The translations under genes were made by a program, and so were the position numbers. This document shows positions 13,508-32,000 of a stretch of 32,000 nt of DNA, piece by piece; within the stretch, counting starts at the first letter, position 1, and the number at the start of each line of letters is the position of its first letter. The notes beneath the pieces were generated by a model. That model was not told the DNA's origin. It searched no databases and saw nothing but the letters and a program-made list of their open reading frames with translations. The stretch is from Balneolaceae bacterium. Lineage in GTDB: Bacteria; Bacteroidota; Rhodothermia; Balneolales; Balneolaceae. The stretch lies in contig OY829281.1 of NCBI GenBank assembly GCA_963691715.1, positions 426,286 to 458,285 of the forward strand, read 5' to 3'.

Positions 13508-13546
13508 AATGTGACCGCTTTGTTATAAATAGCGATCACATTTTTT
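13508..13546 (+). terminator. Putative intrinsic terminator after pdhC
   Basis: AATGTGACCGCT (13508-13519) pairs with AGCGATCACATT (13531-13542) with one mismatch around an 11-nt loop, followed by a T-run to 13546. It abuts the stop of the convergent motB-like gene. Confidence 0.45.
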
Positions 13547-15380
13547 ACGGTCTATACTCTAAGGTAAAAATTACTGGATTGGTATTGAAAGAAAGGGCTT
13601 TGATTTGATTTAACCTTGCTTGAGTGTTGGATAAACTAGATGTTTGGCTAGTCATCACAGAATAAGCACCATTCAAATTCTCTACACGTGTATTAATTCC
13701 TGTGGCTGTTTGAATTTCTAGAGCTAAATTGTTTGCAGCACTGTTGTTTGAAAACACATTGACTTGAATTTGATAGGCATAGTTGTAGTTAAATACAGTT
13801 TCTGGTTGATGACGAATGAATAGATTAACTTTGAAATCCAAATTTCTGTATTCACTAAGTTTTTCCAATACTTCATTTCTTGTATTATATGGGCCTGTCA
13901 AAATGTTGTATGTATCTGAGATACGATTCATAAAAGCCTGAATATTGTGTTTATCAAATAGTTCCATCATAAATTCGGAACCATTTGATCTATTTTGGAA
14001 CGCACCAAATTGAATAAGGTATTTAACTGGTTTTGGCCTATTTATGGTGTTATTGTAGCATTGGTGTAGAACATATACGTCTGAATCTTTTAAAGTATTA
14101 GAGATTACTTTATGACGGTTTAATACGGTTGAAAATGATTGAACAGCATTAGTTCTTATGGAATAATTATTGCCGTTGTAAGTAAGTATAACCGGATCAG
14201 AAATTTTATTTTCTATTTCTGAGGCCTCTTTAAATGCAGATTGCAGAAGAGCAAACTCTCCTAACTGAAGAGAAAACTGACAACGCGCATCCACCTTAAG
14301 TAATGAAGGTATTGTACTAGGTATTTCTTCAGTCTTTGTAGGTGTCTCTAATACTGGTTCGATGTTAGGCTTACTTTCCTTTAAAGGTTTAGATTCTACT
14401 TCCAGTTTGTTTATAGATTGATTCTCAACTTCCTCTAAAGGCACATCTAAATTTAGTTGGTCTTGTTGTACATTATTGTTAGAGGTTTCGGTTTCTTTTT
14501 TTACTTCTTCTATTTTGTTCTGATCAACTAAAGTAACAATAGCTGGTTGATCTGCTAAAACTATTAAATTTCCATCATCAGGATTTTTTAAAGAAGGCTC
14601 AATAGATATATCGTTTTCTAAAGTATCGAATACTATAATTTTAGAATCTTCACTTTCCTCTAGATTTTCTTGATTAACTAAATTCTCAGATGAATAATAA
14701 AGTCTAAGAACCACTCGTCGGTTGGTTTCTTTACTTGCAGCGAATGGATATCCTAAAGAATCGTAGTCAATTACTGGTCTAGAATCTGCATAGCCAGAGG
14801 CTTTTAATCTTCTAGCGGGTATTCCCATGTCATTAAAATATTTAACAATATTAGCAGCTCTAGCAGTTGAAAGTTCCCAGTTTGATGGATATATAGATGA
14901 TTGAATAGGTGTGTTATCTGTATGTCCCTCTATGTCAATATTAAAATCATTGTATTGTAATTGCTGCATAGAAATTAGCACTCGATCGAGCAGATCTTCA
15001 GATCCAGCTTGTAATTTTGCTTCGCCAGAACTATAAAGATCATCACTTTTAAATCGTATTCGAAGATCATTTAAATCTCTTATGATTTCAAGAGAACCAG
15101 CTTCAATTTCAGATTTCAATAGGATAACTAATTCTTCTTGTATATTTCCAATAGGGGTTGTGAAATATTCAGTTTGATCCGCCAATTTGCCAAAAATAGA
15201 AGATAAGGACGAGAATTCTGATTTTGTAATTTGGGACAGCGATAAAAGTATAATTAAGAAACCTAAAACAATAGTTATAATATCGAGATAGCTAACCTGC
15301 CAATTATTGTCTTCTTCTTCTTCATAATCTTGAATAGGAAAAAGGGAATGCTTAATGATTATAGGTTCTTTTTTTTTCAC
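13545..15380 (-). CDS. MotB/PomB-like stator subunit with OmpA-like peptidoglycan-binding domain and three C-terminal SPOR-like repeats
   Basis: N-terminus NNWQVSYLDIITIVLGFLIILL matches the MotB TM helix (W-x-x-x-Y-x-D) and includes the conserved Asp. OmpA-like core IEGHTDNTP...SNWELSTARAANIVKYF...ASGYADSRPV...NRRVVL. After an acidic linker come three ~75-aa units with the SPOR pattern (FSLQLGEF..., YLIQFGAFQNRSNGSEF...YNILTGPYNTRNEV..., YQIQVNVFSNNSAANNLA...AYSVMTSQ...). Confidence 0.8.
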   Translation of the reverse strand: MKKKEPIIIKHSLFPIQDYEEEEDNNWQVSYLDIITIVLGFLIILLSLSQITKSEFSSLSSIFGKLADQTEYFTTPIGNIQEELVILLKSEIEAGSLEIIRDLNDLRIRFKSDDLYSSGEAKLQAGSEDLLDRVLISMQQLQYNDFNIDIEGHTDNTPIQSSIYPSNWELSTARAANIVKYFNDMGIPARRLKASGYADSRPVIDYDSLGYPFAASKETNRRVVLRLYYSSENLVNQENLEESEDSKIIVFDTLENDISIEPSLKNPDDGNLIVLADQPAIVTLVDQNKIEEVKKETETSNNNVQQDQLNLDVPLEEVENQSINKLEVESKPLKESKPNIEPVLETPTKTEEIPSTIPSLLKVDARCQFSLQLGEFALLQSAFKEASEIENKISDPVILTYNGNNYSIRTNAVQSFSTVLNRHKVISNTLKDSDVYVLHQCYNNTINRPKPVKYLIQFGAFQNRSNGSEFMMELFDKHNIQAFMNRISDTYNILTGPYNTRNEVLEKLSEYRNLDFKVNLFIRHQPETVFNYNYAYQIQVNVFSNNSAANNLALEIQTATGINTRVENLNGAYSVMTSQTSSLSNTQARLNQIKALSFNTNPVIFTLEYRP

Positions 15381-16196: not shown

Positions 16197-16733
16197 TTAA
16201 AATGCTTTATTTAAATTTTCATCAATAAGTCCATTAGCTTGTAATTGCTGAATTACATACGCAATAACAGGGATTGGTACATCAGGATCCATTTCAAGAG
16301 CTGTGCGCCACTGGTTAACAAATTCTTCCATATATCCTAAACCAAGATAAATACTTCCCCTCAGAGCTATAACATCGGCATTTTCTTTGATAAGTGCTGC
16401 ACGATTTATCAAAAGCAAAGCATTTTCGAAATCACCAACATATAAATTTTGTTGTGCTAAGATATAGTAATTACTTAATGTATTAGCTTGATCTTGATAT
16501 TGAGCATACATTTCATCTTTATATATTTTTGTCAATGAATTTCTAAGTTCTTCTTCTCTTTCTTGTGCTTCTGCTATGCTATCCGCCTTGGCTTTGGCAA
16601 GAGTTTGTTTTTGTATTTCATCCTCCGTTACCGAAATTATTTGCGGGTTTTCTTCTGATATATCAGATGTAGCAACACAATTAATCTGAATTATAAAAAT
16701 AAGTGATACAACTATTCTGAATTCTATACTCAT
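16197..16733 (-). CDS. Secreted or lipid-anchored TPR protein
   Basis: N-terminal hydrophobic signal ending ..IIQINC|VATS (possible lipobox-like Cys). A coiled, charged segment. Then two TPR-like repeats (YYILAQQNLYVGDFENALLLINRAALI..., ALRGSIYLGLGYMEEFVNQWRTALEMDPD). This module is paralogous to the C-terminal tail of the 962-aa protein. Confidence 0.55.
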   Translation of the reverse strand: MSIEFRIVVSLIFIIQINCVATSDISEENPQIISVTEDEIQKQTLAKAKADSIAEAQEREEELRNSLTKIYKDEMYAQYQDQANTLSNYYILAQQNLYVGDFENALLLINRAALIKENADVIALRGSIYLGLGYMEEFVNQWRTALEMDPDVPIPVIAYVIQQLQANGLIDENLNKAF

Positions 16734-16739
16734 AATGAA

Positions 16740-18566
16740 TTATCTTTGTTGTGAGCGGGTAGCATTTTTTCTGATTGCATTCATTAGTTGAGATTTGGCA
16801 TATTCTGTTTCAGATATACTTAGATCCCTAAGTTCATTTAATTCCATTTTAAGTAAACGTTGTTCTCTTTTTGGTCGAGTAGAAATAATTTTTTCTATTA
16901 CATCATCATCAAGTCCAACGATTGCATCTAGTAAGGTTTCAGTATTGAAAGAACTTACCGACTGTTTAATAATTTCTGTATCTAAGTTTACAAGCATATC
17001 TATAGTAATGAAATTCTTATTCAAAATCGCACCTATCACAGACCCCGTTGCTCGTAATTCATCGATATATTGCTTTTGATCAAATACTGGGATTTTTTCT
17101 AAAATTGGGTAAAGGTGTTCTGCACCATACTGTTCACTTTTTTCAGCTTCAACTAAATCCATGGCTTTATCAAATAGGTTGGAAGATATGCTTTGTTGTT
17201 GATCGTTTGTAAGGCTATTTAATGAAGCAATTTTCAACATAATATTAGCTGCAATTTCTTTGTTAAGCTGTTTTAACAAAGATGCAGCAGTTTCTTCTGG
17301 TATATAATTCAAGATAAAGGCACCAGAAAGAGTGTCCTCAGTTTCAAGAAGGGTTAATACATGTCGTTCTGGAATATGGTCGAGAAATTTGAACAAAGAA
17401 AATTTATTTCTTTTTCTTTCAGAGATAGATTGCTTCGACCCTTTGTGTAGCATGGAGCCAAACTCAATAATAAGTTCATTTCTCTGATCGATTGACATTG
17501 GGATGATTTCATTCAATTGATCTGAGATTAATTCATAATCCTCAGGATGTAATTCACGTTTAAGTGTACGTAATAAGTGTTTATCAGTTGCTATTATTAC
17601 ACGTGCTGCTTTTACGGCTCCATTATTTTCTTCGCTTAGCCAATATCTAAAGATCGTAGCCACTTCTTCAGGTGTTTCAAAAAATGAATTAATGATGGCT
17701 TCTTTGTACGTTTCTAGATGGTTTGTTTCATTTTCTAGTATCTTATTGGATTGTATATGATGGTCTCTATGAGAAACATATTCATTTTTGAAAGCTTCTC
17801 TAAAATCTTTGATTGGAATATGTGCGCTTGGTTTATTAATGAGTCGATTAAAAAGTATAGTTAAACCAATTAATAGCATCAATGCTAATGCGGGTATATA
17901 AGTTACAATAGAATTTAAGTCGGATAATGAGGTTTGTGGAGAGAAGTATGAAGCAGTAATCTGCTCTGGTTGCTCAGTATAGTCAGGTATATCTAATTGT
18001 GAAATGTAAATTTCATCTCCTCGATCTCTATTTATTTTAATTGCAATACCCGTAATAAACCTCATTAATTCTAATTGCTTTGCTTTTAATGAAGTATCTG
18101 CATATACATTTACTGTCATATTCACTACACGCAGAGTTTTAATTGTATTTTGATTTACAACCATTTCTGGCTCTGAGTTTAGTGTGCTTTGCGGTTTCCT
18201 ATTCTCTTCTGGTAAAAAAGGAAGACCTGGCATAAATAAATTCTGTTGTGGTCGGGTTCTAGGTGCTGCCTGATTTTGAATAATAGATATAGTTTCCTCT
18301 ACCAATTCTGCGTTGATGCTAACGTCTACAAAGAATTTCTTTCGATCGAAGTAATTTGCAAGAATCTGGATAATTTGAGTGTCATATTGTTGTTCTAGAT
18401 TTGAAACTCTTAATTCTAAAGATTCGGAATTAACAGTACCTGATAATGATTGTGAAAAGCCTAAATTTGCATTAAAAATAAATGAAAAAAATAGTATTAC
18501 AATTAGTGATAAAAAAGATTTATCACATAAAGAAACATTGAACTTTATTTTTAAAAGTTTAGCCAA
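16740..18566 (-). CDS. Membrane protein: FliF-like periplasmic module + TM + full-length FliG-like (N/M/C) cytoplasmic domain
   Basis: TM1 (LSLIVILFFSFIF), then ~190 aa periplasmic, then TM2 (YIPALALMLLIGLTILF), then ~380 aa cytoplasmic. The last 80 aa align position by position with the FliG C-terminal domain as I remember it: T. maritima DDRSIQKVLREVDTRDLALALKGASDELKEKIFKNMSKRAAALLKDELEY..VRLKDVEEAQQKIINIIRRL versus here DTEIIKQSVSSFNTETLLDAIVGLDDDVIEKIISTRPKREQRLLKMELNELRDLSISETEYAKSQLMNAIRKN. The middle domain is also FliG-like (ETEDTLSGAFILNYIPEETAASLLKQLNKEIAANIMLKIASLNSL, cf. EHPQ..A.IL.YL.PE.AA.VL..L..E....V..RIA). The periplasmic part has FliF/YscJ-like stretches (LEQQYDTQIIQILANY..VDVSINAEL; LRVVNMTVNVYAD...ITGIAIKINRDRGDEIYI, cf. 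the FliF ..GfD..RGD.V.V motif). Confidence 0.65.
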   Translation of the reverse strand: MAKLLKIKFNVSLCDKSFLSLIVILFFSFIFNANLGFSQSLSGTVNSESLELRVSNLEQQYDTQIIQILANYFDRKKFFVDVSINAELVEETISIIQNQAAPRTRPQQNLFMPGLPFLPEENRKPQSTLNSEPEMVVNQNTIKTLRVVNMTVNVYADTSLKAKQLELMRFITGIAIKINRDRGDEIYISQLDIPDYTEQPEQITASYFSPQTSLSDLNSIVTYIPALALMLLIGLTILFNRLINKPSAHIPIKDFREAFKNEYVSHRDHHIQSNKILENETNHLETYKEAIINSFFETPEEVATIFRYWLSEENNGAVKAARVIIATDKHLLRTLKRELHPEDYELISDQLNEIIPMSIDQRNELIIEFGSMLHKGSKQSISERKRNKFSLFKFLDHIPERHVLTLLETEDTLSGAFILNYIPEETAASLLKQLNKEIAANIMLKIASLNSLTNDQQQSISSNLFDKAMDLVEAEKSEQYGAEHLYPILEKIPVFDQKQYIDELRATGSVIGAILNKNFITIDMLVNLDTEIIKQSVSSFNTETLLDAIVGLDDDVIEKIISTRPKREQRLLKMELNELRDLSISETEYAKSQLMNAIRKNATRSQQR

Positions 18567-18584
18567 AAGATAGATTTATATATA

Positions 18585-21473
18585 CTAGTCGAATTCACTG
18601 GTATCGATTCCTTGTTCCAATACTTCCATATTTGGTATGTAAAGGTTAGGATTAAATCTCAGCGCTTGTTCCCATTCACGTTGAGCTTGTTCGATATTTC
18701 CTTCAAAATAATAAAAACTTCCCTTTAATGCGTAAGCTTGAGCAGTTTCAAAAAGTTCTAATGATTCACTTACAAATTTAAAAGCTGAATTCATATCTTT
18801 ACTATAAAAGGCGTTTTGAGCTTTTACTATAAGACGTAGTGATGCATCAATTTTGTTAAAAAGTTCTTGGGAATATTCTAAGATTTGAGGAGAGGCTTTA
18901 ATTTGTTCAGTTATTCGTTCTATAGCTAGAATGCTAGCACTATCTTCAACACTCTCTTCTGTCTCTTTCAAAGGTAATAAAGTAAAATTTAGCCCTTCTA
19001 TAAAATCGCCACTTGGCGTAATTTTTATCTCAAATTCAATGGCTTCTGGTTCCGATTTTGAATCTAAAAGTTCTAATTGAGCAGGATCAATCTCTAGTAT
19101 ATATTTTCCTGGTGCGATGGGATATTCATAAAAGCTACCATCCGAAAATGTTCTTAATTCTTTAGTTTCGTTTTCTCCAATTTTACGTAAAAGAACTTTT
19201 AAGCCACCAATACCTTTTGTTACATTATCTTCATATTGTCGCTCCACTATTCCCTCCATCACACCACTTGTATTAAATGGTATTTGAATCAACTTAAAAC
19301 TATTAGGGTCTGTGATAATAGAAAATTCTTCATATTCAGGCACTAACATAGGATTCGAAATCGTCGATGTGTTTATACCCATATTATAGCGGTAGTATGA
19401 AAGTAACTGAGTGTAGTAGAGCACCCCATTTTTATAAAAAGATTGTGCCCCTCCACGCCCAAGTCTAAGTTTTGCATCAGGTAGTAAATCATCCCCGCTA
19501 TTATAAAGCCCATTTGAATCATTATCTATAAATAGCTGTATAGCAGCTCCCGATTTACCAACTTGATTTCTACTAGTTAATATGAAATGATTAAAGTTTG
19601 AATCATATCCTATCGAGCCTCTTACATTTTGAGTTATATTGTAAGAATCACGTATCGTAGAAAATGTAGAATTACTCCTTATTTTTTTTAAATCTATTAT
19701 AAAATTTACCCTTGCTGAGGTATAATTTTGCTGGAAATTCCGACCTATTGATGCTTGTAATCTCCCTACCTTAAATACATTTTTTGAGAATAAAAATTCA
19801 CCAGATTCTATTTTATCATCTGATAATCGATATCTAGACTGAGCTCTCAAGAAAGTACCTCTTAAAAGGGGAGGGATATTTGGGTTTTTGGATACAGTAA
19901 AGGTAGCCGAAGCATCAATCACACCAGTATCACTAGATGTAAAGGGATCAAATGTATCTATCAAACGATCAGAATACCCAAGTCGAATACTCATTTTTTT
20001 TATCCGTGTACTCACATCAAATCGCTGAGTATTTGTTAATACATTCTGTCTTACGCGAATAAAATTTGAAATTCGAAGATTTAAAGGAAGTTTGAAAAAT
20101 TTAGCAGGATAAAATATAGAGGATAATATTTGACGGGAGTTATTCGAAGAATTAAAAATACTTTCACCACCATAATACTCGGTAACATCAATATTGAAAC
20201 TTGCCGTATTTGGATAGATCACATTCAAATTTGAACGAACGTAAGCGTCTGATACTCCTTCGATCGTAAATATATAGTTTTTCGAAATTCTTGATGAGAT
20301 GGAAGCAGTATAGAAGGGTTCATTTTTACCAATCTCTTCAGAATAATATTCAACTCCAAAACGCGCACTTAACCATTTTGTAAGCCCATATGAAATATTA
20401 CCTTGTATTGTTCTATTCCTAATTGTAGAACCGATTAATGGATTATCCAATACTCCTGCATTAAAACGATAGTCGAGTTTACCCTTTGGCACAAAATTGA
20501 AGGGAACTTGTACTCGAGTTGTTCGGGTGATCAATTGACCAGTTGGCCCATAAATTTTTAAATCTAGTTGAGACGACCCATAGTTTAGAGGAGCTAGAAA
20601 TCTATAGTCCCCGATTTCGTTGGCTAATTGATAATCGATCAATCCATTATTTAAATACAGCTCAACTTCTGATAAAGGAATTGTAGTGCCCTTAATTTCA
20701 AATTCATCAAAAAATCGACGTGGCTCCACTGGATCATTAGTAATACGTAGCCCAGTATACTGAGCTCCATATACTCCATCTAAAGGAGACTGACCCAATG
20801 ATATTGAACTGATCCATGGTGTATCTCGTATAAGTGTTTTCCATCTTAAATTATCTGTTTCAAGTACAGAGGCATCAGTATTTGAATTTCCAAATATATT
20901 TCCTTGTAGATCACCACCAAGCACCTGTACTCCAAAGGAACCACTGTAACTTAATGATTGTACTTCAGGTTGTATGTTGCTTGAAAAAGCATAATCAAAA
21001 AACCCTCCATCCAAAATAGTTCTTTCTCTTCCTTTTCGTAATTGAAAATATGTTACTTCATTTGATTTATTCGATATACGTCTTTTATTTTTTCGTAAAC
21101 TACGCTCAACAACGGGTAATTCAACATCAGTAGTTAAGTCAAGGCTCAAGTTATTAATATCAACAGAAAATTCTAGGCCAAAGACGGAACGGAAAAAAGC
21201 AGGTGTAAAATGAAAATCAAGGTCTGTTAAATAATAATCGCTAGATGTTAAAGGATAATCAAAACCATCAAAATTAGCCAATTGCCGAGTAAAATCAATC
21301 GTATATGAAGTTTGTTCAAATCCAAATTTTCCAGATATTTCTAAACCATCTACATTCGATTGCAACTCTAGGATATTGAATAATTCTAGCATAGGAAGAT
21401 AGAACTGCTCCCCATCGTAATAAGTAATAACTACGGTATTTACTACCCCTCGATACCTAAAGTCAAGATACAC
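18585..21473 (-). CDS. Fimbrial usher-like outer-membrane protein with carboxypeptidase-regulatory-like domain and C-terminal TPR tail; 5' end unresolved
   Basis: EIKGTTIPLSEVELYLNNGLIDYQLANEIGDYRFLAPLNYGSSQLDLKIYGPTGQLITRTTRVQVPF matches the conserved usher stretch (FimD: GIARTQAQVTIKQNGYDIYNSTVPPGPFTIDDIYAAGNSGDLQVTIKEADGSIQTLYVPY). It is followed by ~500 aa of alternating, beta-barrel-like sequence, GGLKVLLRKIGENETKELRTFSDGSFYEYPIAPGKYILEI (CarboxypepD_reg-like), and a TPR tail. The ORF track starts at GTG 21473, but a signal-peptide-like sequence is encoded in frame upstream of it (see findings). Confidence 0.55.
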   Translation of the reverse strand: MYLDFRYRGVVNTVVITYYDGEQFYLPMLELFNILELQSNVDGLEISGKFGFEQTSYTIDFTRQLANFDGFDYPLTSSDYYLTDLDFHFTPAFFRSVFGLEFSVDINNLSLDLTTDVELPVVERSLRKNKRRISNKSNEVTYFQLRKGRERTILDGGFFDYAFSSNIQPEVQSLSYSGSFGVQVLGGDLQGNIFGNSNTDASVLETDNLRWKTLIRDTPWISSISLGQSPLDGVYGAQYTGLRITNDPVEPRRFFDEFEIKGTTIPLSEVELYLNNGLIDYQLANEIGDYRFLAPLNYGSSQLDLKIYGPTGQLITRTTRVQVPFNFVPKGKLDYRFNAGVLDNPLIGSTIRNRTIQGNISYGLTKWLSARFGVEYYSEEIGKNEPFYTASISSRISKNYIFTIEGVSDAYVRSNLNVIYPNTASFNIDVTEYYGGESIFNSSNNSRQILSSIFYPAKFFKLPLNLRISNFIRVRQNVLTNTQRFDVSTRIKKMSIRLGYSDRLIDTFDPFTSSDTGVIDASATFTVSKNPNIPPLLRGTFLRAQSRYRLSDDKIESGEFLFSKNVFKVGRLQASIGRNFQQNYTSARVNFIIDLKKIRSNSTFSTIRDSYNITQNVRGSIGYDSNFNHFILTSRNQVGKSGAAIQLFIDNDSNGLYNSGDDLLPDAKLRLGRGGAQSFYKNGVLYYTQLLSYYRYNMGINTSTISNPMLVPEYEEFSIITDPNSFKLIQIPFNTSGVMEGIVERQYEDNVTKGIGGLKVLLRKIGENETKELRTFSDGSFYEYPIAPGKYILEIDPAQLELLDSKSEPEAIEFEIKITPSGDFIEGLNFTLLPLKETEESVEDSASILAIERITEQIKASPQILEYSQELFNKIDASLRLIVKAQNAFYSKDMNSAFKFVSESLELFETAQAYALKGSFYYFEGNIEQAQREWEQALRFNPNLYIPNMEVLEQGIDTSEFD

Positions 21474-21562
21474 CTCAAAATGATCTTCATCTTGGGCAAA
21501 GGAATTAGTGACAAAGCACAGAGAAAAAACTATAAAAAAAAAAGACTTTTTTTCAAGTAAAC

Positions 21563-22399
21563 TTAATTTCTTTTAGAGTAAGTTGTGGTGTTAGAAACAG
21601 TTTTCATTTGAACTAAATCAGTACTTGAAATATCAGAGCGCTGTGATTCGAATGTGATATTGATAGAATACGTGTCGTTAGGCAGATCTTTTATATCAAA
21701 AATATTTTTATAGATCCCATCAAAATAGATAGAAGTAGAAGAGAACGCACGTCTAACTTCTTCACCAGATGGGTTTTTCATTGTAGCGGTTATGGAGCCC
21801 AAAAAAGGAGAATTACCTGTTCGTTTTATATCAGTAAGTAGTGTTAGCGTACCTTTTTCACTGTCATAATTGGTATTCATATCACTAATTTCAATTCCGG
21901 TAGTTACATTCCCTTTTTTATAAAAAATTCCTGTTATTTGCTCAACTCTAATTCCTACTTTTGCAGAAACGGTGTTTGAAGCTTGTAATTCTACAGGTGG
22001 TGCTTCTGGACTTGAACCTGTTTTAATTCTCGCCCAATACGTGCCGTCAGGCAGATCGCTTGGAGGACTTAATCTTAAACGTACGATTTGCCGTTGATCT
22101 TTAGCAAGGGTAAAATTTCTAGGAAATGCTTTAATGTACTCGGCAATAGAATATTGATCTTCTATTTCTGGATCATCAGTAACGATTGATCTTGTTCCAG
22201 CGCTGTCTGAACTACTGTATGAAAATGTAAAGTCTATGGAAATCTCTTGAGTTTCATTGGAGTTATTAATGACCATATAGGTTCCAAATCTCGTATTCCC
22301 CTCAATGAACATATTTGTAGGTGCAATGGTAATTTGAGAAATACCACTGTCAATTATGAATATCGATAACAATGGTATTAAGAATAGATATTTTTTCAT
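21563..22399 (-). CDS. PapD-like periplasmic fimbrial chaperone (putative)
   Basis: Signal peptide MKKYLFLIPLLSIFIIDSGISQ. The N-domain pattern ITIAPTNMFIEG..GTYMVINNSNETQEISIDF...FPRNFTLAKDQRQIVRLRLSPPSDLPDGTYWARIK resembles the Pili_assembly_N pattern (v.l.pTRvIy....s..l.v.N......lvq.w.....PF.vtPPl.rl.p...q.lRi....LP.DrEs). At 278 aa it has a two-domain size, and it sits directly upstream of the usher-like gene. Confidence 0.5.
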   Translation of the reverse strand: MKKYLFLIPLLSIFIIDSGISQITIAPTNMFIEGNTRFGTYMVINNSNETQEISIDFTFSYSSSDSAGTRSIVTDDPEIEDQYSIAEYIKAFPRNFTLAKDQRQIVRLRLSPPSDLPDGTYWARIKTGSSPEAPPVELQASNTVSAKVGIRVEQITGIFYKKGNVTTGIEISDMNTNYDSEKGTLTLLTDIKRTGNSPFLGSITATMKNPSGEEVRRAFSSTSIYFDGIYKNIFDIKDLPNDTYSINITFESQRSDISSTDLVQMKTVSNTTTYSKRN

Positions 22400-22463
22400 T
22401 TACACAAATGGTTCAGTTTAAATGCTCAATTACAAGAAATATAAATATAGTTTTTTATAAAAC

Positions 22464-22497
22464 TATAAAAAAACCCCTTCCTTAGGAAGGGGTTTGG
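22464..22497 (-). terminator. Rho-independent terminator after the 176-aa fimbrial subunit gene
   Basis: On the minus strand the sequence reads AAACCCCTTCC-TAA-GGAAGGGGTTT followed by TTTTTATAG. The stem is GC-rich in an AT-rich genome (core CCCCTTCC/GGAAGGGG, 22474-22481 and 22485-22492) and starts about 18 nt after the stop at 22515. Confidence 0.8.
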
Positions 22498-22514
22498 AAA
22501 GAATTGATTTGTTT

Positions 22515-23045
22515 TTATTGATAAACAAAGGAAACTGATAAGTCTGAGCCACCAGTAAGGTTAGTGGAGTAAACACCATTAGCTTGGCTTGCATCCACAC
22601 CTAGCGAACCACCTATATCTAAGGTAATTTGTCCGTCTGATGATACATCTTGAAATTTTATTACTGTTGTTCCGCTAGTTACCTGGTCTCCACCAACCCA
22701 AATGTCTGGTGTGAATGTCATAGAATTAGAGCCACCATCAGAAAGTGTAGCAGTGGTGAATGTTGCAATTACTTCTGCACCTATAACACCGTCAGATAAT
22801 AAAATTCTTCCTGGGGATGCACCATTACCAACATCTACGCTTACAGCGTCATTTCCATTTGCAGCAAGATTTGGAGAAGTATTAGCTGTTATGCTACCAA
22901 ATTCAACTGCTGTAGTTGTGATGGTTAAAGAGGTAGTAACAGTTGCATTAACATCTACGGTTGTACTTTCGTCCTGCGCATTCACAGTTGGGATAATTAA
23001 AATTGAAAGTAAGAATACCGGTATTAATTTTAATAAATTTTTCAT
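22515..23045 (-). CDS. Secreted DUF4402/SCPU-like (Csu-type) fimbrial subunit, probable major subunit
   Basis: Signal peptide ..PTVNA|QDE. Thr/Ser/Gly/Val-rich beta-strand sequence with the layout I associate with DUF4402: VDVNATVTTSLTITTTAVEFGSI...(core)...ITLDIGGSLGVDASQANGVYST...SVSFVYQ. It has its own 95-nt upstream spacer and a strong terminator downstream. Confidence 0.6.
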   Translation of the reverse strand: MKNLLKLIPVFLLSILIIPTVNAQDESTTVDVNATVTTSLTITTTAVEFGSITANTSPNLAANGNDAVSVDVGNGASPGRILLSDGVIGAEVIATFTTATLSDGGSNSMTFTPDIWVGGDQVTSGTTVIKFQDVSSDGQITLDIGGSLGVDASQANGVYSTNLTGGSDLSVSFVYQ

Positions 23046-23140
23046 GGTTTTATCTATTGTGATTTTTGTTTTTTTTAAAGTTATTTAATGTCTTTTGTAT
23101 TTCCTAGTTAAAAACTCTTAATTAAAATTGTTTAAGTTTA

Positions 23141-23674
23141 TTAATCGAACTCTATTTGTAAGATAATATCTCCACTGTATTCACCTAAGGCAATATTGCC
23201 CACAGTGATTGAGCCAAACACATATATATAGACCGACTTCCAAACTTCGGATGATGCATTCTCAGTTGTATTAGTGTTTGATTGCACAGGTAAATACCCC
23301 GTATTGTTTGGAATGATGGTAGCTAATTCTGTCTTATTTGTACCGCTGTTATTGTAAGCAATAGACATTTCAATGGGAATTTGGTCTACAACAGTGGGGT
23401 TGGGATGGGTTAAAGCAGGAGGATAATCTAAGCTGACAAAAATACTTTGTGTGTGGTATGCCTTAATGTTAAATACTCCCATACCCATATCGCCTAGCCC
23501 TACTGCGAATGAGCCTGAATTAGCTGCTAAATCCCCAAAACTAAAATCGCTCTCCACAGAAGCACTTAACTCGGGTTCTATGGTAATCTGTAGATTTAGA
23601 AATTGTGCACTTAAATCTAAAATATTAAAGTGTACGATCAATGCTATGTATAAAAATTTAATCATAGCTGACAC
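23141..23674 (-). CDS. Secreted DUF4402/SCPU-like fimbrial subunit paralog
   Basis: Signal peptide. ..FSFGDLAANSG.. near the N-terminus. C-terminus VFGSITVGNIALGEYSGDIILQIEFD shares the G-x-Y-x-G-x-(I/F)-x-(I/L)-x-(I/V)-x-(Y/F) ending with its neighbours. The gene overlaps the upstream gene by 17 nt (8 nt if the second Met is used). Confidence 0.5.
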   Translation of the reverse strand: MSAMIKFLYIALIVHFNILDLSAQFLNLQITIEPELSASVESDFSFGDLAANSGSFAVGLGDMGMGVFNIKAYHTQSIFVSLDYPPALTHPNPTVVDQIPIEMSIAYNNSGTNKTELATIIPNNTGYLPVQSNTNTTENASSEVWKSVYIYVFGSITVGNIALGEYSGDIILQIEFD

Positions 23675-24263
23675 TTATGTTTATTGTACCCATGTAACTT
23701 CCGCTAACTAGATTGCCGGTTGTTGTAACGGTAGGATAAATATAAAGATAAGCAGTATCATTATATAAAGAAGGGTTATATCCTTCAAATACAGGAGTTG
23801 GTGGTGGTCCTGGGGGGGTATTTCCACCTTTATTACGAATTGGAAATAATGCATTTGCGGTGGAACCTACTACCAAAAAATTAATGGCATGATCGGTATT
23901 ATCTTGTCCTAAGTTAGCGTAAGCAGCTCTTAGATTGAGGGGTAAACGTCGAGTTGGATCATTTTGGTTGTTTGGATCGTCGTCCAGTAATAAATGGGAA
24001 TCAGCAATTATTTCAACAAATACGTCTAAATATTCTACTCCTTCAATCGAAAAAACTTTAGAGTCTTGAATATCAATAGCCGTAGTTTCCCCAGCTTGGT
24101 CAATAATTATACCAAAATCTAATGCACTACCCGGATTAACCTCAGACAAAATAACAGAATATTGTGAACTATAGCTGCCAAAATCAATTTCCTGACTGAT
24201 AAGGTATTTGTTGTTCAAAAAAGTCATGAGTAGTAAAAGTATATACGTATTAAACCTCTTCAT
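23658..24263 (-). CDS. Secreted DUF4402/SCPU-like fimbrial subunit paralog with Pro-rich insert
   Basis: Signal peptide. ..LDFGIIIDQAG.. near the N-terminus. GGNTPPGPPPTP insert. C-terminus YIYPTVTTTGNLVSGSYMGTINISVSYD carries the shared motif. Its start overlaps the stop of the upstream gene by 1 nt. Confidence 0.5.
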   Translation of the reverse strand: MKRFNTYILLLLMTFLNNKYLISQEIDFGSYSSQYSVILSEVNPGSALDFGIIIDQAGETTAIDIQDSKVFSIEGVEYLDVFVEIIADSHLLLDDDPNNQNDPTRRLPLNLRAAYANLGQDNTDHAINFLVVGSTANALFPIRNKGGNTPPGPPPTPVFEGYNPSLYNDTAYLYIYPTVTTTGNLVSGSYMGTINISVSYD

Positions 24264-24757
24264 TAGATGTAATCGATCTCTATCGTAAAATCGCCTTCAT
24301 AGTTCCCTGGTTCTGCGTTTTCAAGATTTAATACACCACCTAACCAGATATAAAATGTACCTTCATTGTTAAAGCGTAGATTTCTATTTTGATATTGAAT
24401 TATATCAGAAGTAGATTGATCATCTATAGTATTACCTGAAAGTTCATATCTGAATGTTAAATAACCTGGGCCCTCTATTCTGTCTAGCCTTTTCTCTAAA
24501 TCATAATCTAATCTAAATTCGGCTTCGGGTGTACCTAGAGCAACCATATGCCCTGAATTGAGGTCATTAATTGGATTAATTGTGATGATAACTTGGCCAG
24601 GTTGAGTATTTTCTAAACTTAATGGATTTACAGTTATTAATTCTATTGATTGTGTAACTTCAGCATTTATATTGAGTTGAGCACTAACAGAGGTGTCGTC
24701 CTGAGCAATGGTTGAGGAAGGAATCAAGAAAAATATTATAAGAATCAGTAATCTCAT
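24263..24757 (-). CDS. Secreted DUF4402/SCPU-like fimbrial subunit paralog
   Basis: Signal peptide MRLLILIIFFLIPSSTIA|QDD. VSAQLNINAEVTQSIELITVNPLSLEN... C-terminus FYIWLGGVLNLENAEPGNYEGDFTIEIDYI closely follows the DUF4402-type ending (..vGGtL.v...q..G.Y.G.f.vtv.Y). Confidence 0.55.
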   Translation of the reverse strand: MRLLILIIFFLIPSSTIAQDDTSVSAQLNINAEVTQSIELITVNPLSLENTQPGQVIITINPINDLNSGHMVALGTPEAEFRLDYDLEKRLDRIEGPGYLTFRYELSGNTIDDQSTSDIIQYQNRNLRFNNEGTFYIWLGGVLNLENAEPGNYEGDFTIEIDYI

Positions 24758-27879: not shown

Positions 27880-30800
27880 CTACTTTATTAAGGTCATTTT
27901 CTTTATAAATACATTATTATTTGCTTGTAATCTATAAAAATAAACTCCACTAGCTAAGGTTCTAGCATTAAAATATGTTTGATATCTTCCTGGCTCGCGG
28001 TTTTCATTTATAAGTGTTTGGATTTTGCGGCCAAGTATGTCGTAAATCTCTAGTAGAACATCCGATTGTTCATCTAATCCAAAATTGATAGTGGTGCTAG
28101 GATTAAATGGATTAGGATAATTCTGGCTAAGGAAAGGTTGCATTGGAACATCTCTTTCGATTTGTTCTATAGAAATCATAAGTGTAAATCGTGTACTCAT
28201 TGATTTCGATTTTGCAATAATTTTGTAATCAGGAGATAAAGGATTAACCTTTTCTCTTTTAGTTTTAGTGGAATGATTGAATATATATTCGCCCTCTTCT
28301 AGCAGATTGATGGTTTCACCTGTTATATTATCGAAAAGTGTTAAAATCCAGTCATCTGGTACACTTCTTAGGTCATCCCAGACTATTTGATATGTGCCAC
28401 TCACTTCTAAATTTTCTTCATATGAATCGAAATGTAGAGGTATGTAGTAACGAGTTTTAAAATCTATCGGTAAATTATTGATATCTAATTGAGTGCCGTC
28501 TTCAAGTAATGAGTGAAACTCGAAATAAGTTTGTGCCATAGTAGTTAGGCGATAAGCATCTAACTTATCTTTTGATTTAGAAGCATCATCAGAAAGCATG
28601 ATATGTGTTTCTTTAGCTCTACCATTTTCTCCTTTTACTGCAATTCCAATACGTACAATATCATATAAATTATCATTCTCCGATTTGAATGATAAACTAT
28701 CAGAGTTTTTAGGCATTGTTTTTCGAAGAAAAGAACCACCACTTGTTTTTGCTTCTTTTTTCACAGCTAAAGTTGGATCTGTATTATTGGCTTTTACCAT
28801 GAATCCTTGAAAAGGTGCAATTAACCCGTTTCCGAGAGTCCCTGTTACTCCATTCCAGGTTAGAAATTCACCATTACCTGCATTGGCAGCTGGATCCCAA
28901 ACATAAATTGTGGATTCAACATTGGTTTTAGTCCAATTAGCATTGTCATCCCAGTCAATGGTAGCTGCAAAGGGGTTCCCAATTAAATTCCAACCAGAAT
29001 CGGCGTTTGCTGTGTAGGTAATACCAAAATTAACCTCATCACCATTGCCATCCCATTCTTGACCTACAGCCTCTAAAGTATCGGGTAGTGGTTCATTATA
29101 TCTGGAATCTCCTGGAATATCGCCCCAAACATAAAGCCAAATTCCTTGGCCTTGTTGCACATTAGTAGAAGCACTTGAGGGTGCTCGAAATCTTTGATTA
29201 TCTGTTCCAGAATAATTTTCTAATTTAGTAAAAACATTGGGTTGAAGTGTGTCACCTGGTGAGGTATTACTGTCATAAAATGCCCCTGGATAACCTTGGG
29301 TGATTGTACCATCGAGCAAATCTCCAAAAGTAGTTGAGAAAGGGGATGAAATTAATCTCCAGCCATTATTGCCAGTAATTTCGTTTTGCATTCTTATGGA
29401 TCCTGATTCATATCTTTTGGAATTTGCGATCAAGTTTGAACCATCTGTTAATGACAATACGCCATCTAGGAGTTTAAGAGAATCAGTTACCGATAAGTTA
29501 CCGATAAAACGAACGCCTGCAGGGTTATTAATTACTAAGTTTGAGAATGTATTTGGGGCAAACACAGACTGTAGAATACTACCGTTAAGTAGCACATAGC
29601 CAATATCTATGTTGTCTATATCAAGATCACCACCTACGGTAAGCGAGTCACTATTACTTCCTAATATATTTCCATCACCTGCGGTTTCGTCATTAACAAT
29701 GAAGTTAATACCGCCAGATAGTGTTATAGATGCAGTATTTTCAATAGCAATTTTTTGAATTACAGTATTTGATTGATTCACAAATGGCTGTTCATTACCA
29801 ACTGAAGGTGATGCAGGAATATATACTTTGTCTAAATTACTGGGAACAGCACCTGCACTCCAATTATTTGGATCATACCAATTTCTTGCATCGGCGACAG
29901 AACCAATCTGAGATTGCCATTGGGTGTTGAATTCAGCGAATTCTACTTGGGCATCATTAACTAAATCAGCAGCATTTAATGTACCCGTAATGGTTGCAAT
30001 ACCTGCATTGGTAGACGAGGTGAGAATGGAAGTGTATGTACCATCATTATTATCTATAATCGAACTTAAAGTGCCAGATGTTACGCTTAAAGTAAAGGAA
30101 TCTCCACCTACTAGTACAGTATTTCCTTCAGCATCTTTTGCTTGGATTGTTATGGTTGAAGTGGAAAAACCGTCATTGAATATCACAGATGGATTTGCTG
30201 AAATGGTTGAAGTAGTTTCAGATGCCGCGCCAGGTGTAACATTAAAAGTATTACTAGTTCCTTGTTCAGTACCTGTAGTATTTGTTGCTGTAAGCGAACA
30301 AGAACCTGTATTGGATATACTCACAGTTAATGAAGAAAGTATACCATTAGTAAATGTGGGTGAAGTTCCGGCTCCACTCCCTATAACACAGTTAGAAGTT
30401 AATGTTATAGTTCCATTAAAAGTAGTAACTGTATCTTGAATGCCATCAACACCAATAATGGTAATATTGAAATTTTGACCAGCTAATTTATCAGATATAT
30501 TTCCTGAGGGTACTCTTTGAACCAGAAAATTTGTTAATTCTCCTAAAATCACAACATCAAATTCATTGCTAGTAGTATCTGTTAAGTTGGTACTAGAAAT
30601 TGTAATCGAGTATGTACCAGTTTCATCGATAATAAGATTATCAAATTCAGCAACACCAAATAGGTTTGTTTCTACATTGGTGATTGAAGATCCATCAAAA
30701 TTACCAGATCCAGAAATTTGGTTTAAGCTTACGGAAACATTTACTCTACTTTCCTCCACAGCATTTCCAAATTGATCAATTAGTTGTAATCTTGGAGATG

Positions 30801-32000
30801 GAATTATTGGTGAGTTTACATTTGAAGAATTTGGTTGTTGAAGAAATTCTAGCGTAGTTGAATTTCCAGGCACTATTTTAAGTAACCCATAATCGGTAGT
30901 ACCACCTAATCCAGTTGTTCCAACATTTTTAATAGTACCAAAATTTGGTATTATACCTGAAGTTGGCCTTACTCTAAAATTTCCAAAATTGATTTCAGCT
31001 GGATTGTTGGTAGAATTAGTAGTTATTGTAAATGTGATTTGGGTTTTAGTTCTGCTAGTATACGATATTGACAAATCGGTACTCCCTCCAAAAGCAGGAC
31101 TTACACTAGCTGTTGGATTAGAACCAGTATCGTCCCATTCAAAACCACTTGGTGCTTCAAAAATATATGTTCCTGTAGAGAATTCTCCTGCAAAACTTTC
31201 TTGTACTCTAGGGCCAGACAAAGTGGTAAATGTTGCTACAGAATTTGCATCATCAGCAGATATTGCATCACCGCCTAATGCAGGTGTAAGTAAACGAATT
31301 GGGACATTGTATTTATTTGATAAATAGTCTTCGATAAGTTCCTGATCGGGCAAAGAAATTTCATTATTGTAAAGAATAACCTCTGCAATTAAACCATCCC
31401 AACTAGAATTATTGTCTAAAGGTCCTTGGCCTAAAATTGCAGTAGTTAAATTTGAAGGATCTAGTGTGCCAGAAGGAATAGGGGTTGATGAAGTTGGATT
31501 ACTTAATACACCATCAATGTACATTTCATAGGTAGTTTCAGTAGTCCATTTTAACATAACAATTTGCCCTTCAGTAGTTTGAGCGTCTTCAAAGCTTTCT
31601 AAACTAAAACCAGTAAGATCTCTTAAGCCCGATGTTACCACATTACTTGCACCTCCAAGTGCGCCAATTGCATCGTATCGTAAACTAAAATATCGATCGT
31701 TAGAAGTTGTATTTGGTGTTACTGTTGTCCAGAATCCTTTATCTGTTGAAGTAATATCAGATTCAATTACAAAAAATATAGTTAGACCTGATAATCCTCC
31801 TAGGTATTGGGTTTCAGCATCAGCATCTTCAAGGCGTTCATTGGAAGAGCCTCCAGAAAATTCAATGGCTGGTTTGGAGTTTATGGTGCTTACTGAGCTT
31901 TGATAAATAGGAGCAATAGCACCTGTAGAGGTAAAGTCATGACCATTTCCACTTTGATCCAACCAATTTAAAACATTATCTCCATCTTCAGCAGGATCAC
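27880..32000 (-). CDS. Giant T9SS-secreted surface protein (LamG/ConA-like lectin domain, Ig-like Big_1-type repeats, T9SS CTD), 5' end beyond window
   Basis: The frame stays open upstream of the TTG at 31962 to the window edge (..DPAEDGDNVLNWLDQSGNGHDF..). The LamG-like region runs NWLDQSGNGHDF...AIEFSGG...MLKWTTETTYEMYIDGVL...LIAEVILYNNEISLPDQELIEDYLSNKYN. An invasin-like Ig repeat is present (STISANPSVIFNDGFSTSTITIQAKDAEGNTV..FTLSVTSGTLSSIIDNNDGTYTSILTSS). C-terminus SQNYPNPFNPSTTINFGL...GVYFYRLQAN...KKMTLIK is a type-A T9SS sorting domain. Confidence 0.75.
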   Translation of the reverse strand, partial: DPAEDGDNVLNWLDQSGNGHDFTSTGAIAPIYQSSVSTINSKPAIEFSGGSSNERLEDADAETQYLGGLSGLTIFFVIESDITSTDKGFWTTVTPNTTSNDRYFSLRYDAIGALGGASNVVTSGLRDLTGFSLESFEDAQTTEGQIVMLKWTTETTYEMYIDGVLSNPTSSTPIPSGTLDPSNLTTAILGQGPLDNNSSWDGLIAEVILYNNEISLPDQELIEDYLSNKYNVPIRLLTPALGGDAISADDANSVATFTTLSGPRVQESFAGEFSTGTYIFEAPSGFEWDDTGSNPTASVSPAFGGSTDLSISYTSRTKTQITFTITTNSTNNPAEINFGNFRVRPTSGIIPNFGTIKNVGTTGLGGTTDYGLLKIVPGNSTTLEFLQQPNSSNVNSPIIPSPRLQLIDQFGNAVEESRVNVSVSLNQISGSGNFDGSSITNVETNLFGVAEFDNLIIDETGTYSITISSTNLTDTTSNEFDVVILGELTNFLVQRVPSGNISDKLAGQNFNITIIGVDGIQDTVTTFNGTITLTSNCVIGSGAGTSPTFTNGILSSLTVSISNTGSCSLTATNTTGTEQGTSNTFNVTPGAASETTSTISANPSVIFNDGFSTSTITIQAKDAEGNTVLVGGDSFTLSVTSGTLSSIIDNNDGTYTSILTSSTNAGIATITGTLNAADLVNDAQVEFAEFNTQWQSQIGSVADARNWYDPNNWSAGAVPSNLDKVYIPASPSVGNEQPFVNQSNTVIQKIAIENTASITLSGGINFIVNDETAGDGNILGSNSDSLTVGGDLDIDNIDIGYVLLNGSILQSVFAPNTFSNLVINNPAGVRFIGNLSVTDSLKLLDGVLSLTDGSNLIANSKRYESGSIRMQNEITGNNGWRLISSPFSTTFGDLLDGTITQGYPGAFYDSNTSPGDTLQPNVFTKLENYSGTDNQRFRAPSSASTNVQQGQGIWLYVWGDIPGDSRYNEPLPDTLEAVGQEWDGNGDEVNFGITYTANADSGWNLIGNPFAATIDWDDNANWTKTNVESTIYVWDPAANAGNGEFLTWNGVTGTLGNGLIAPFQGFMVKANNTDPTLAVKKEAKTSGGSFLRKTMPKNSDSLSFKSENDNLYDIVRIGIAVKGENGRAKETHIMLSDDASKSKDKLDAYRLTTMAQTYFEFHSLLEDGTQLDINNLPIDFKTRYYIPLHFDSYEENLEVSGTYQIVWDDLRSVPDDWILTLFDNITGETINLLEEGEYIFNHSTKTKREKVNPLSPDYKIIAKSKSMSTRFTLMISIEQIERDVPMQPFLSQNYPNPFNPSTTINFGLDEQSDVLLEIYDILGRKIQTLINENREPGRYQTYFNARTLASGVYFYRLQANNNVFIKKMTLIK

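Follow-up and report, generated by a model that had tools for sequence, protein, structure and literature searches.

The DNA analyzed here, a stretch of 32,000 nucleotides (nt) of contig OY829281.1 from a Balneolaceae bacterium (hereafter the window), carries on its minus strand a gene for a protein of 608 amino acids (aa) in which a FliF-like ring-building domain and a FliG-like domain are joined in a single polypeptide (FliF/G). This gene is the third of a tight operon that comprises a chaperone-like gene, an outer membrane usher, FliF/G, a small tetratricopeptide repeat (TPR) protein, MotA and MotB, with gaps of 18 nt between usher and FliF/G, 6 nt between FliF/G and TPR, 6 nt between TPR and MotA, and 12 nt between MotA and MotB (Table 1). 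An earlier inspection of the letters alone (the sequence-only reading) had placed the fusion gene outside any flagellar operon and without FliM or FliN partners nearby. We indeed found no other flagellar gene among the open reading frames (ORFs) scanned in the window and no FliM or FliN domain among those of at least 100 aa, but the gene is not isolated. The sequence-only reading did not describe the operon, and membership in it changes the meaning of the finding.

The fusion protein and its stator genes

The ORF and both peptide strings quoted in the sequence-only reading are present, with INRDRGDEIYI at residues 178 to 188 and EKIISTRPKREQRLLKMELNELRDLSISETEYAKSQLMNAIRK at residues 557 to 599 of the translation. 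Hydropathy delimits two hydrophobic segments at residues ca. 11 to 39 and 217 to 244, separated by ca. 177 aa and followed by ca. 364 aa, which comes close to the ca. 190 periplasmic and ca. 380 cytoplasmic residues that had been claimed. As read from the sequence, Lys and Arg residues lie before the first segment and past the second, placing the FliG-like part in the cytoplasm as had been proposed. Of the two transmembrane (TM) helices claimed, the second stands, whereas the first is probably a cleaved signal peptide and not TM1, because it ends in the SQ/AQ common to signal peptides of neighboring secreted proteins; this AQ/SQ ending is conserved across 54 homologs. The protein has four parts: a signal peptide or TM1, a periplasmic domain resembling the third ring-building motif (RBM3) of FliF, a TM helix, and a FliG-like cytoplasmic domain. 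A 94-aa ORF running antisense within the gene (16795..17079, plus strand) was regarded as spurious, by judgement.

The similarity to FliG is far beyond chance. Among Pfam profiles, FliG_C (PF01706) scores 47.7 bits at residues 514 to 603 (cut-off 23.3) and FliG_M (PF14841) 34.6 bits at residues 401 to 472 (cut-off 25), and a phmmer search against the PDB matched the M and C domains of T. maritima FliG (1lkv) over residues 394 to 600 at an E-value of 1e-11. FliG_C and FliG_M are the best profiles and not MgtE_N (PF03448), which had been considered as a possible source of the resemblance and reaches 15.6 bits under a cut-off of 25.9. While M and C are above their cut-offs, the N domain that had been claimed alongside them is seen differently, since the Pfam FliG_N match (30.5 bits) lands on residues 416 to 469 and hence in the M region. 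A Foldseek search with an AlphaFold2 (AF2) model of the protein, built on 54 homologs and with a predicted local distance difference test score (pLDDT) of 74.7, aligned 310 to 335 columns to full-length FliG chains of 310 to 331 residues (8wiw_3 at an E-value of 8e-9 over 310 columns; also 3hjl), and this full-length alignment points to an N-like domain at residues ca. 278 to 390. The score against the NCBIfam fliG equivalog TIGR00207 is 51.5 bits and does not reach its cut-off of 226.7.

The torque-helix region, where the sequence-only reading had seen the Arg kept and the acidic pair partly kept, bears out both points. In a HMMER alignment to T. maritima FliG, R567 falls on the arginine of the SKR motif (R281 in E. 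coli) and E575 on the second acidic residue (D289). Both are invariant in 54 Balneolaceae homologs together with R564, E568, Q569 and L571, and the consensus of the region reads RPKREQRLIRxEL.

The likeness to FliF is weak in sequence and, as far as the predicted model goes, clear in fold. YscJ_FliF_C (PF08345) matches at 17.3 bits (E = 0.007), below its cut-off of 23.8, and YscJ_FliF (PF01514), which covers RBM1 and RBM2, has no match in the fusion protein, whose periplasmic part spans just the ca. 177 aa mentioned above; RBM3 is its sole RBM. The AF2 model predicts a helix (residues 47 to 70), a long strand (78 to 99), a disordered loop (100 to 133), another long strand (134 to 156), a helix (162 to 176) and a final strand (185 to 190) in the periplasm, then the TM helix (217 to 243) and an all-helical domain (278 to 607). 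This alpha-beta-[loop]-beta-alpha-beta order agrees with the RBM-like fold that had been proposed, and Foldseek matched it to the RBM3 or S-ring chains of FliF (8zdt_A, 6sd1_A and 7d84_A; E-values of ca. 1e-5, target-normalized TM-scores of 0.52 to 0.55), with far weaker matches to SpoIIIAG (5wc3) and PrgK (2y9j). Across 48 diverse relatives (17% to 38% identity), P113, the R182-G183-D184 motif and F394 are invariant, and L112, G114, L115, P116, W309 and G316 are at least 90% conserved. The LPGLP loop to which several of these residues belong is disordered in the AF2 monomer model, and we propose it as a putative partner-binding motif.

Judging from sequence comparison, the two genes that close the operon encode a flagellar-type stator. 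Hydropathy gives MotA four hydrophobic segments with a ca. 100-aa cytoplasmic loop, and the protein scores 59.7 bits against the Pfam family MotA_ExbB. Its top NCBIfam matches are flagellar stators (PRK09109, MotP, MotA and PomA) at 91 to 101 bits, with TolQ/ExbB at E-values above 0.01, although its best score of 100.7 bits does not reach the cut-off of 237 for a named flagellar stator equivalog. In the PDB, its top matches are C. sporogenes MotA, among whose chains is chain C of 8ucs, a complex of MotAB and FliG (E = 3e-22), and also PomA. MotB scores 30.6 bits for MotB_plug, 53 bits for OmpA and 42.5 bits for SPOR (all Pfam), and the Asp in its TM segment (..SYLDIIT..) aligns with the Asp of C. 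sporogenes MotB.

The identity of the usher was seen by fold alone and not by PDB sequence profiles: when profiles of the usher, of the chaperone-like protein and of a pilin-like protein were run against PDB sequences, generic TPR matches or none at all came back. In the AF2 model of the usher (pLDDT 82.1; multiple sequence alignment of 38 homologs), a beta domain at the N-terminus is followed by a large barrel of the 24-strand type into which a plug-like domain is inserted, then by two beta-sandwich domains and a helical TPR domain at the C-terminus. Foldseek matched this model over 800 to 900 columns to FimD (9bog_D, E = 5e-29 over 901 columns) and PapC (7lhg_C, E = 7e-24), and on this predicted fold the 962-aa protein is the usher of a chaperone-usher pilus. 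The 278-aa secreted protein encoded directly upstream always adjoins the usher gene across the loci compared; it shows weak PapD_N matches in 7 of 20 orthologs (best E = 0.003), no PDB profile match, and a C-terminus resembling a type IX secretion (T9SS) sorting domain in 16 of the 20. The four paralogous secreted proteins in pilin position all have signal peptides and share a C-terminal G-x-Y-x-G motif, and DUF4402 matched in all 20 orthologs of the 164-aa member. A terminator-like hairpin behind the last pilin-like gene may set a high ratio of pilin to assembly machinery expression; a hairpin after the pilin gene is also known from classical fimbrial operons. A scan for sigma-70 promoters gave fewer matches than in shuffled sequences.

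Conservation, exchange and distant relatives

We found 112 close full-length homologs of the fusion protein (36% to 67% identity, ca. 580 to 630 aa) that all have the same architecture, and all those bearing an organism name are from Balneolaceae or Balneola. Searching again with a profile built from 48 diverse members brought up these 112 Balneolaceae proteins once more and no new ones. In a synteny scan that took one genome per species, we detected 43 loci, nearly all labeled Balneolaceae or Balneola and including Balneola sp. EhC07 (locus L038), with intact reading frames and a fixed order of pilin-like genes, chaperone-like gene, usher, FliF/G, TPR, MotA and MotB, followed by convergent pyruvate dehydrogenase genes and alaS. 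The small TPR protein is found at every syntenic locus, and MotA is 64% to 92% identical to the copy in the window across the family. The ratio of nonsynonymous to synonymous substitution rates (dN/dS, by Nei-Gojobori) is 0.03 to 0.14 for FliF/G and 0.005 to 0.07 for MotA, compared to 0.02 to 0.13 for the housekeeping E2 gene. The cluster is under strong purifying selection.

The TPR domains connect the usher to the genes downstream of it. A hidden Markov model of TPR partners from distant operons that have no usher (see below) hit the small TPR protein of the window at an E-value of 3e-17 and residues 869 to 950 of the usher at 5e-23. In the sister genus Gracilimonas, the same locus of adhesin, pilin-like, chaperone-like and usher genes is present with no FliF/G, TPR or MotAB, and its usher ends in SPOR instead of TPR. 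We compared alleles in five genome pairs (L004/L005, L009/L010, L015/L016, L026/L046 and L036/L038) over the region equivalent to 18585-24757 of the window together with the motor genes. Identity is 0.70 to 0.98 for FliF/G and 0.92 to 0.99 for MotA, with 0.43 to 0.77 for the pilin-like genes, 0.50 to 0.67 for the chaperone-like gene and 0.49 to 0.65 for the usher overall, but the last ca. 100 residues of the usher reach 0.78 to 1.00. For L009 and L010, successive windows of 100 usher residues read 0.62, 0.56, 0.64, 0.68, 0.49, 0.52, 0.62, 0.65, 0.71 and 1.00, and this jump marks an exchange boundary at the junction of usher body and TPR tail. The comparison suggests that the surface-exposed part, comprising the pilin-like, chaperone-like and usher-body genes, is replaced as a cassette with its breakpoint at this junction. 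The usher TPR tail is inherited with the motor genes and not with the rest of the usher, which is the strongest indirect evidence that the tail serves as an adaptor between pilus and motor.

Motor-bearing genomes carry the SPOR domain on MotB, and the motor-less Gracilimonas locus has it at the usher C-terminus (L052 10001-13516). Septal peptidoglycan is what SPOR domains bind, so division sites or new poles may be where the machine is directed.

Beyond Balneolaceae, an exhaustive HMMER search of 1.84 billion cluster representatives gave 138 at E-values below 1e-10, and among the matches listed ca. 100 are distant (19% to 27% identity) yet aligned end to end. These distant members have an N-terminal signal or TM segment and a FliG-like C-terminus, and most have an RGD motif 30 to 50 residues ahead of the TM segment. 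The gene contexts of six of them take two forms. In one, found on an Elusimicrobiota metagenome-assembled genome (MAG) and three other contigs, FliF/G is followed by a secreted protein of ca. 360 aa, a TPR protein, MotA and MotB with no usher; as read from the sequences, the N-terminus contains a Cys and is lipoprotein-like in three of the four TPR proteins, and the ca. 360-aa protein has no homolog in the window. In the other, found on a Bacteroidales MAG and contig L048, DUF4402 or small proteins, a protein of ca. 275 aa and a usher-like protein of ca. 990 aa that ends in TPR precede FliF/G, MotA and MotB, with a small TPR gene after FliF/G in the Bacteroidales locus. In some relatives, a third TM helix at the FliF/G C-terminus leads into a fused TPR, an arrangement that places TPR in the periplasm and argues for a physical association of TPR and ring protein. 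The core of FliF/G, TPR and MotAB looks like a modular power unit that is paired either with a usher or with the ca. 360-aa and TPR proteins.

Two observations on these relatives stand on their own. The ca. 360-aa protein (L047 11339-12415, L049 11956-13029, L050 11791-12864 and L051 8693-9811) has weak matches to FlgO in three of its four copies (E-values of 0.009 to 0.07), and FlgO is a component of the outer membrane H-ring of the Vibrio flagellum. The distant member at L048 5844-8267 is an 807-aa protein that carries a LysM domain at its N-terminus (54 bits), a third TM helix and, fused to its C-terminus, TPR; a peptidoglycan-binding rotor-like protein is odd for a part expected to rotate.

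Farther upstream, the four genes at the next position, three of them with hydrophobic N-termini reminiscent of (pseudo)pilins, are found at some but not all Balneolaceae loci, and the motor-less Gracilimonas has them too. The giant surface protein gene heads the pilus locus every time, motor or no motor, and its homologs are 2,500 to 2,700 aa long with DUF2341 and Laminin_G_3 domains. At the other end of the window, the sorting domain of an unrelated 786-aa protein confirms type IX secretion in this organism.

Table 1. Positions of the features described in the text, numbered from the first nucleotide of the window
Feature	Position	Strand	Basis
FliF(RBM3)-TM-FliG fusion protein	16740..18566	minus	ORF, TTG start, 608 aa
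N-terminal hydrophobic segment, aa 13-39, putative cleavable signal peptide ending ..GFSQ/S (slash, putative cleavage site)	18450..18530	minus	Hydropathy and conserved AQ/SQ
Periplasmic RBM3-like ring-building domain, aa 47-190	17997..18428	minus	AF2 secondary structure and Foldseek
LPGLP loop, aa 112-116, tip of long beta-hairpin	18219..18233	minus	Family alignments
RGD motif, aa 182-184, ahead of last RBM strand	18015..18023	minus	Family alignments
TM helix, aa 217-244	17835..17918	minus	Hydropathy; AF2 helix 217-243
Cytoplasmic FliG-like domain, aa 278-607, all-helical, spanning FliG M and C and a predicted N-like domain	16746..17735	minus	Foldseek, Pfam, PDB phmmer
Torque-helix region, aa 564-579, RPKREQRLLKMELNEL	16830..16877	minus	Alignment to T. 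maritima FliG; invariant columns
Small TPR protein of the periplasm, 178 aa, with a hydrophobic anchor or signal at the N-terminus; conserved module partner	16197..16733	minus	Weak Pfam TPR; hidden Markov model of distant TPR partners
MotA/PomA-type stator A subunit, 265 aa	15393..16190	minus	Pfam, NCBIfam, PDB
MotB-type stator B subunit, 611 aa, with TM Asp, plug, OmpA-like peptidoglycan-binding domain and C-terminal SPOR	13545..15380	minus	Pfam, alignment
Outer membrane usher (predicted), 962 aa as called from GTG 21473	18585..21556	minus	AF2 and Foldseek
Usher C-terminal TPR domain, aa 845-955, same family as small TPR protein	18609..18941	minus	Hidden Markov model; identity windows
278-aa secreted protein in chaperone position, directly upstream of usher	21563..22399	minus	PapD_N weak; position
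Strong hairpin resembling a terminator, with 11-bp stem (6 GC pairs) and T-run, separating last pilin-like gene (22515-23045) from chaperone-like gene	22471..22495	minus	Sequence
Four paralogous secreted DUF4402-type proteins, 176/177/201/164 aa, pilin position	22515..24757	minus	DUF4402, signal peptides
Four genes, 139/194/471 (DUF4900)/132 aa	24847-27677	minus	Three with N-terminal hydrophobic helices reminiscent of type IV (pseudo)pilins
Giant surface protein, Invasin_D3 and T9SS C-terminal sorting domain, 1360+ aa, continues past window end	27880-31962	minus	Pfam
Unrelated 786-aa protein, BNR/Sortilin-type repeats and T9SS sorting domain	703-3063	plus	Domain match

A rotor-like module at a pilus usher and its alternative readings

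With moderate confidence, we favor the view that the operon encodes a non-flagellar, proton-driven rotor and stator coupled via TPR domains to a chaperone-usher pilus, with rotation and coupling deduced from homology, gene order and co-inheritance. The fusion protein would assemble through RBM3 into a ring of some tens of subunits, by analogy to FliF RBM3 and SpoIIIAG, and this ring would be a rotor in which FliF and FliG are matched 1:1 by construction and which has no FliM/FliN switch. MotA5B2 units anchored in the wall would push on the FliG torque helix (R567 and E575) by proton flow. On its periplasmic side, where the LPGLP loop and the RGD motif lie, the ring would be tied to the usher in the outer membrane by way of the TPR protein and the TPR tail of the usher. 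The proton-motive force could then do mechanical work on the pilus machine in the form of rotation, assembly or secretion, retraction, or lateral movement.

Several points weigh against this proposal. Ring formation, rotation and the contacts between MotA and FliG or along the ring-TPR-usher path are all inferred from homology, gene order and co-inheritance, and it is not obvious by what geometry a many-subunit ring in the inner membrane would drive a single usher barrel. Only half of the acidic pair of the torque helix is kept, as the position of D288 is not conserved and holds M, L, E or Q among the 54 homologs. The charge comparison between MotA loop and torque helix suggested in the sequence-only reading came out mixed, with loop charges KKDK...SEE that do align to the canonical R90/E98 pattern but with an offset of one residue. 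The FliM-binding EHPQR motif is lost, with ETEDTLSG where T. maritima FliG reads QSEHPQTI and a homolog consensus that likewise has no such motif; the replacement of EHPQ by EDTL fits the absence of FliM, and the ring would have to come together without the C-ring as its scaffold. Weak matches underlie the assignments of chaperone and pilins, which remain putative. Furthermore, the signal peptide of the usher, starting at TTG 21556-21554, is one base out of frame due to a T10 run at 21534-21543, and a tract of 11 T would restore MKKSLFFFIVFSLCFVTNSFAQ. A 99%-identical 962-aa usher with the same truncated start has been called in other assemblies (P0268), and the frame break may be an off-state or phase variant of a slipped-strand switch or a homopolymer assembly error shared between assemblies.

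Beyond the window, the evidence that flagellar genes are missing comes from a survey by others and covers two relatives. For Balneola sp. EhC07, this survey lists matches to FliG, MotA, MotB, FlgD, FlgO, FliA, FliI, FliY, FlrA, FlrC, MotX, MotY, RpoD and RpoN, and for a second Balneolaceae genome the same list minus MotB (PMC12199754). FliF, FlhA/B, FliP/Q/R, rod proteins, FliM/N and FliC are not on the EhC07 list (PMC12199754). According to the same study, 11% of non-motile species have rotor proteins but no filaments, and such proteins might have another function, a point not followed up there (PMC12199754).

The main rival, which we regard as unlikely, is that the module is a force transducer or anchor in which MotAB pulls on or reshapes a static FliF/G scaffold and gates or energizes the usher, or an outer membrane lipoprotein, via the TPR proteins. 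The lipoprotein-like N-termini of TPR proteins and the TPR tail of the usher would resemble the coupling of inner to outer membrane in Ton and Tol systems, there is no rod or bearing at the locus, and the geometry problem of one usher and one ring would vanish. However, the stator is of the flagellar and not the ExbB/TolQ type, FliG_C with its torque helix is the very part that flagellar stators turn, and the RBM3 ring-building domain suggests a closed ring.

It is considerably more doubtful that the motor serves the adjacent giant T9SS adhesin in a gliding-like movement, or some other envelope process, and that the chaperone-usher genes are linked to it by position only. A protein of more than 1,360 aa with Invasin_D3 and T9SS domains is encoded upstream, the same type of protein is found at related loci, and proton-driven motors move adhesins in Bacteroidota. 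Yet the adhesin gene is also present at the motor-less Gracilimonas pilus locus, there is none beside the Bacteroidales and Elusimicrobiota modules, and both the TPR family link and the co-inheritance go with the usher and not with the adhesin.

A functionless, decaying remnant of a lost flagellum is very improbable, even though these bacteria are from a group that lost flagella and rotor proteins without filaments are on record for 11% of non-motile species (PMC12199754): dN/dS values as low as those of the housekeeping E2 gene effectively exclude a decaying relic, 43 species with fixed synteny have kept intact reading frames, motifs do not vary across phyla, and the fused architecture is a specific one that flagella do not have. 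Hardly credible, too, is the reading that the gene is an ordinary FliG/FliF paralog in a flagellated organism, or that an MgtE-type domain sensing Mg2+ was mis-scored as FliG, for which one could cite the JGI label "flagellar motor switch protein FliG" of homologs, the weak MgtE_N match and the description of Balneola vulgaris as flagellated (Urios 2006, cited in PMC5167729), but which is contradicted by a TIGR00207 score far under its cut-off, the lack of flagellar genes in the window and of export, rod, FliM/FliN and filament genes in the EhC07 survey, an MgtE_N score below cut-off with FliG_C above its own, and the membrane anchor and RBM3 domain. The MgtE-like, flagellar-relic and ordinary-FliG readings were rejected on Pfam and NCBIfam scores, dN/dS, synteny and membrane anchoring.

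Taking the proton-driven rotor and stator at the usher one step further, it is possible, as a tentative extension, that the locus represents a further class of proton-driven rotary machine, i.e., a FliF/G ring standing alone that MotAB turns and that spins or otherwise powers a chaperone-usher pilus (a "motorised pilus"). The usher-less form would then be a living model of a pre-flagellar rotor/stator core or a streamlined descendant. Such a machine could also explain the "flagella" of B. vulgaris, which is described as motile with these appendages (Urios 2006, cited in PMC5167729), in that the structures called flagella could be these pili. B. vulgaris is not among the 43 loci that we found.

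Comparison with known systems

Full-text literature searches returned no description of this operon and, in the papers searched, no occurrence of the term DUF4402, and the system appears to be undescribed. FliG is, to our knowledge, the one part that sets the flagellar motor apart from all other MotAB-family machines. If our proposal is true, FliG and MotAB would work without export apparatus, rod, hook, filament or C-ring, so that the torque core would function on its own, and a usher connected to a motor driven by protons would stand out as an exception, with implications for pilus secretion, retraction and movement. The system is compact, with a four-gene core and a modular output, and since EhC07 is listed as a strain and not as a MAG, genetics, cryo-electron tomography and single-motor biophysics may be feasible. 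A review passage names three known proton-driven rotary motors, namely ATP synthase, the flagellar motor and the T9SS (PMC9127263).

Other ion-driven motors of 5:2 stoichiometry are ExbBD-TonB, TolQR-TolA, GldLM/T9SS, AglRQS-Glt, SiiAB and ZorAB (listed in PMC12204202). The system described here shares with them a MotAB-family proton channel in the inner membrane that would act on an outer membrane or cell surface process, and differs in that its A subunit is of the flagellar type. None of ExbBD, TolQR, GldLM, AglRQS, SiiAB and ZorAB is known to have FliG or a FliF-type ring, and their A subunits are not flagellar-type. SpoIIIAG and SctJ/PrgK share the RBM fold with an insertion between strands, but they are weaker structural matches than FliF RBM3 and have neither a FliG fusion nor a stator.

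With chaperone-usher pili, the locus has in common the full usher architecture as predicted by fold, small secreted subunit-like genes and a gene in chaperone position upstream, and the terminator-like hairpin. In contrast to these pili, the usher here ends in a TPR domain and lies in one operon with rotor and stator genes, the subunits are DUF4402-type, and the PapD match is weak. Assembly of chaperone-usher pili at the outer membrane is viewed as needing no energy input, and ushers are not known to draw on an energy source in the inner membrane.

Among fusions of FliF and FliG, the natural one of Chlamydiaceae has ca. 330 aa, with RBM2 and one more RBM and only the middle region of FliG (Bergeron 2016, PMC4768692). 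Like the protein studied here, it joins an MS-ring protein covalently to FliG, and its host is a non-flagellated organism, but no linked MotAB was reported for it (PMC4768692), whereas the window encodes a protein of 608 aa with RBM3 only, what is predicted to be a complete FliG with torque helix, and the stator in the same operon. Engineered FliF-FliG fusions of Salmonella indicate that a fused 1:1 rotor can work (Francis 1992 and Thomas 2001, as cited in PMC4768692).

The core of the flagellar motor agrees with the locus in the RBM3 fold, the helical M and C domains of FliG (with a predicted N-like domain), a torque helix with invariant equivalents of R281 and D289, a four-segment MotA with a large cytoplasmic loop, and a MotB with channel Asp, plug and OmpA-like wall anchor. 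It differs in that FliF and FliG are one polypeptide here, RBM1 and RBM2 are absent and EHPQR is lost, and in that the partners are a TPR protein and a pilus usher and MotB carries SPOR. The locus also lacks FliM/FliN as well as the export gate, the rod, the hook and the filament, and none of these is listed in the genome survey of its relative, a FlgD match aside (PMC12199754). The Chlamydiaceae and engineered Salmonella fusions are the closest precedent for the protein, and the flagellar motor core is the closest machine.

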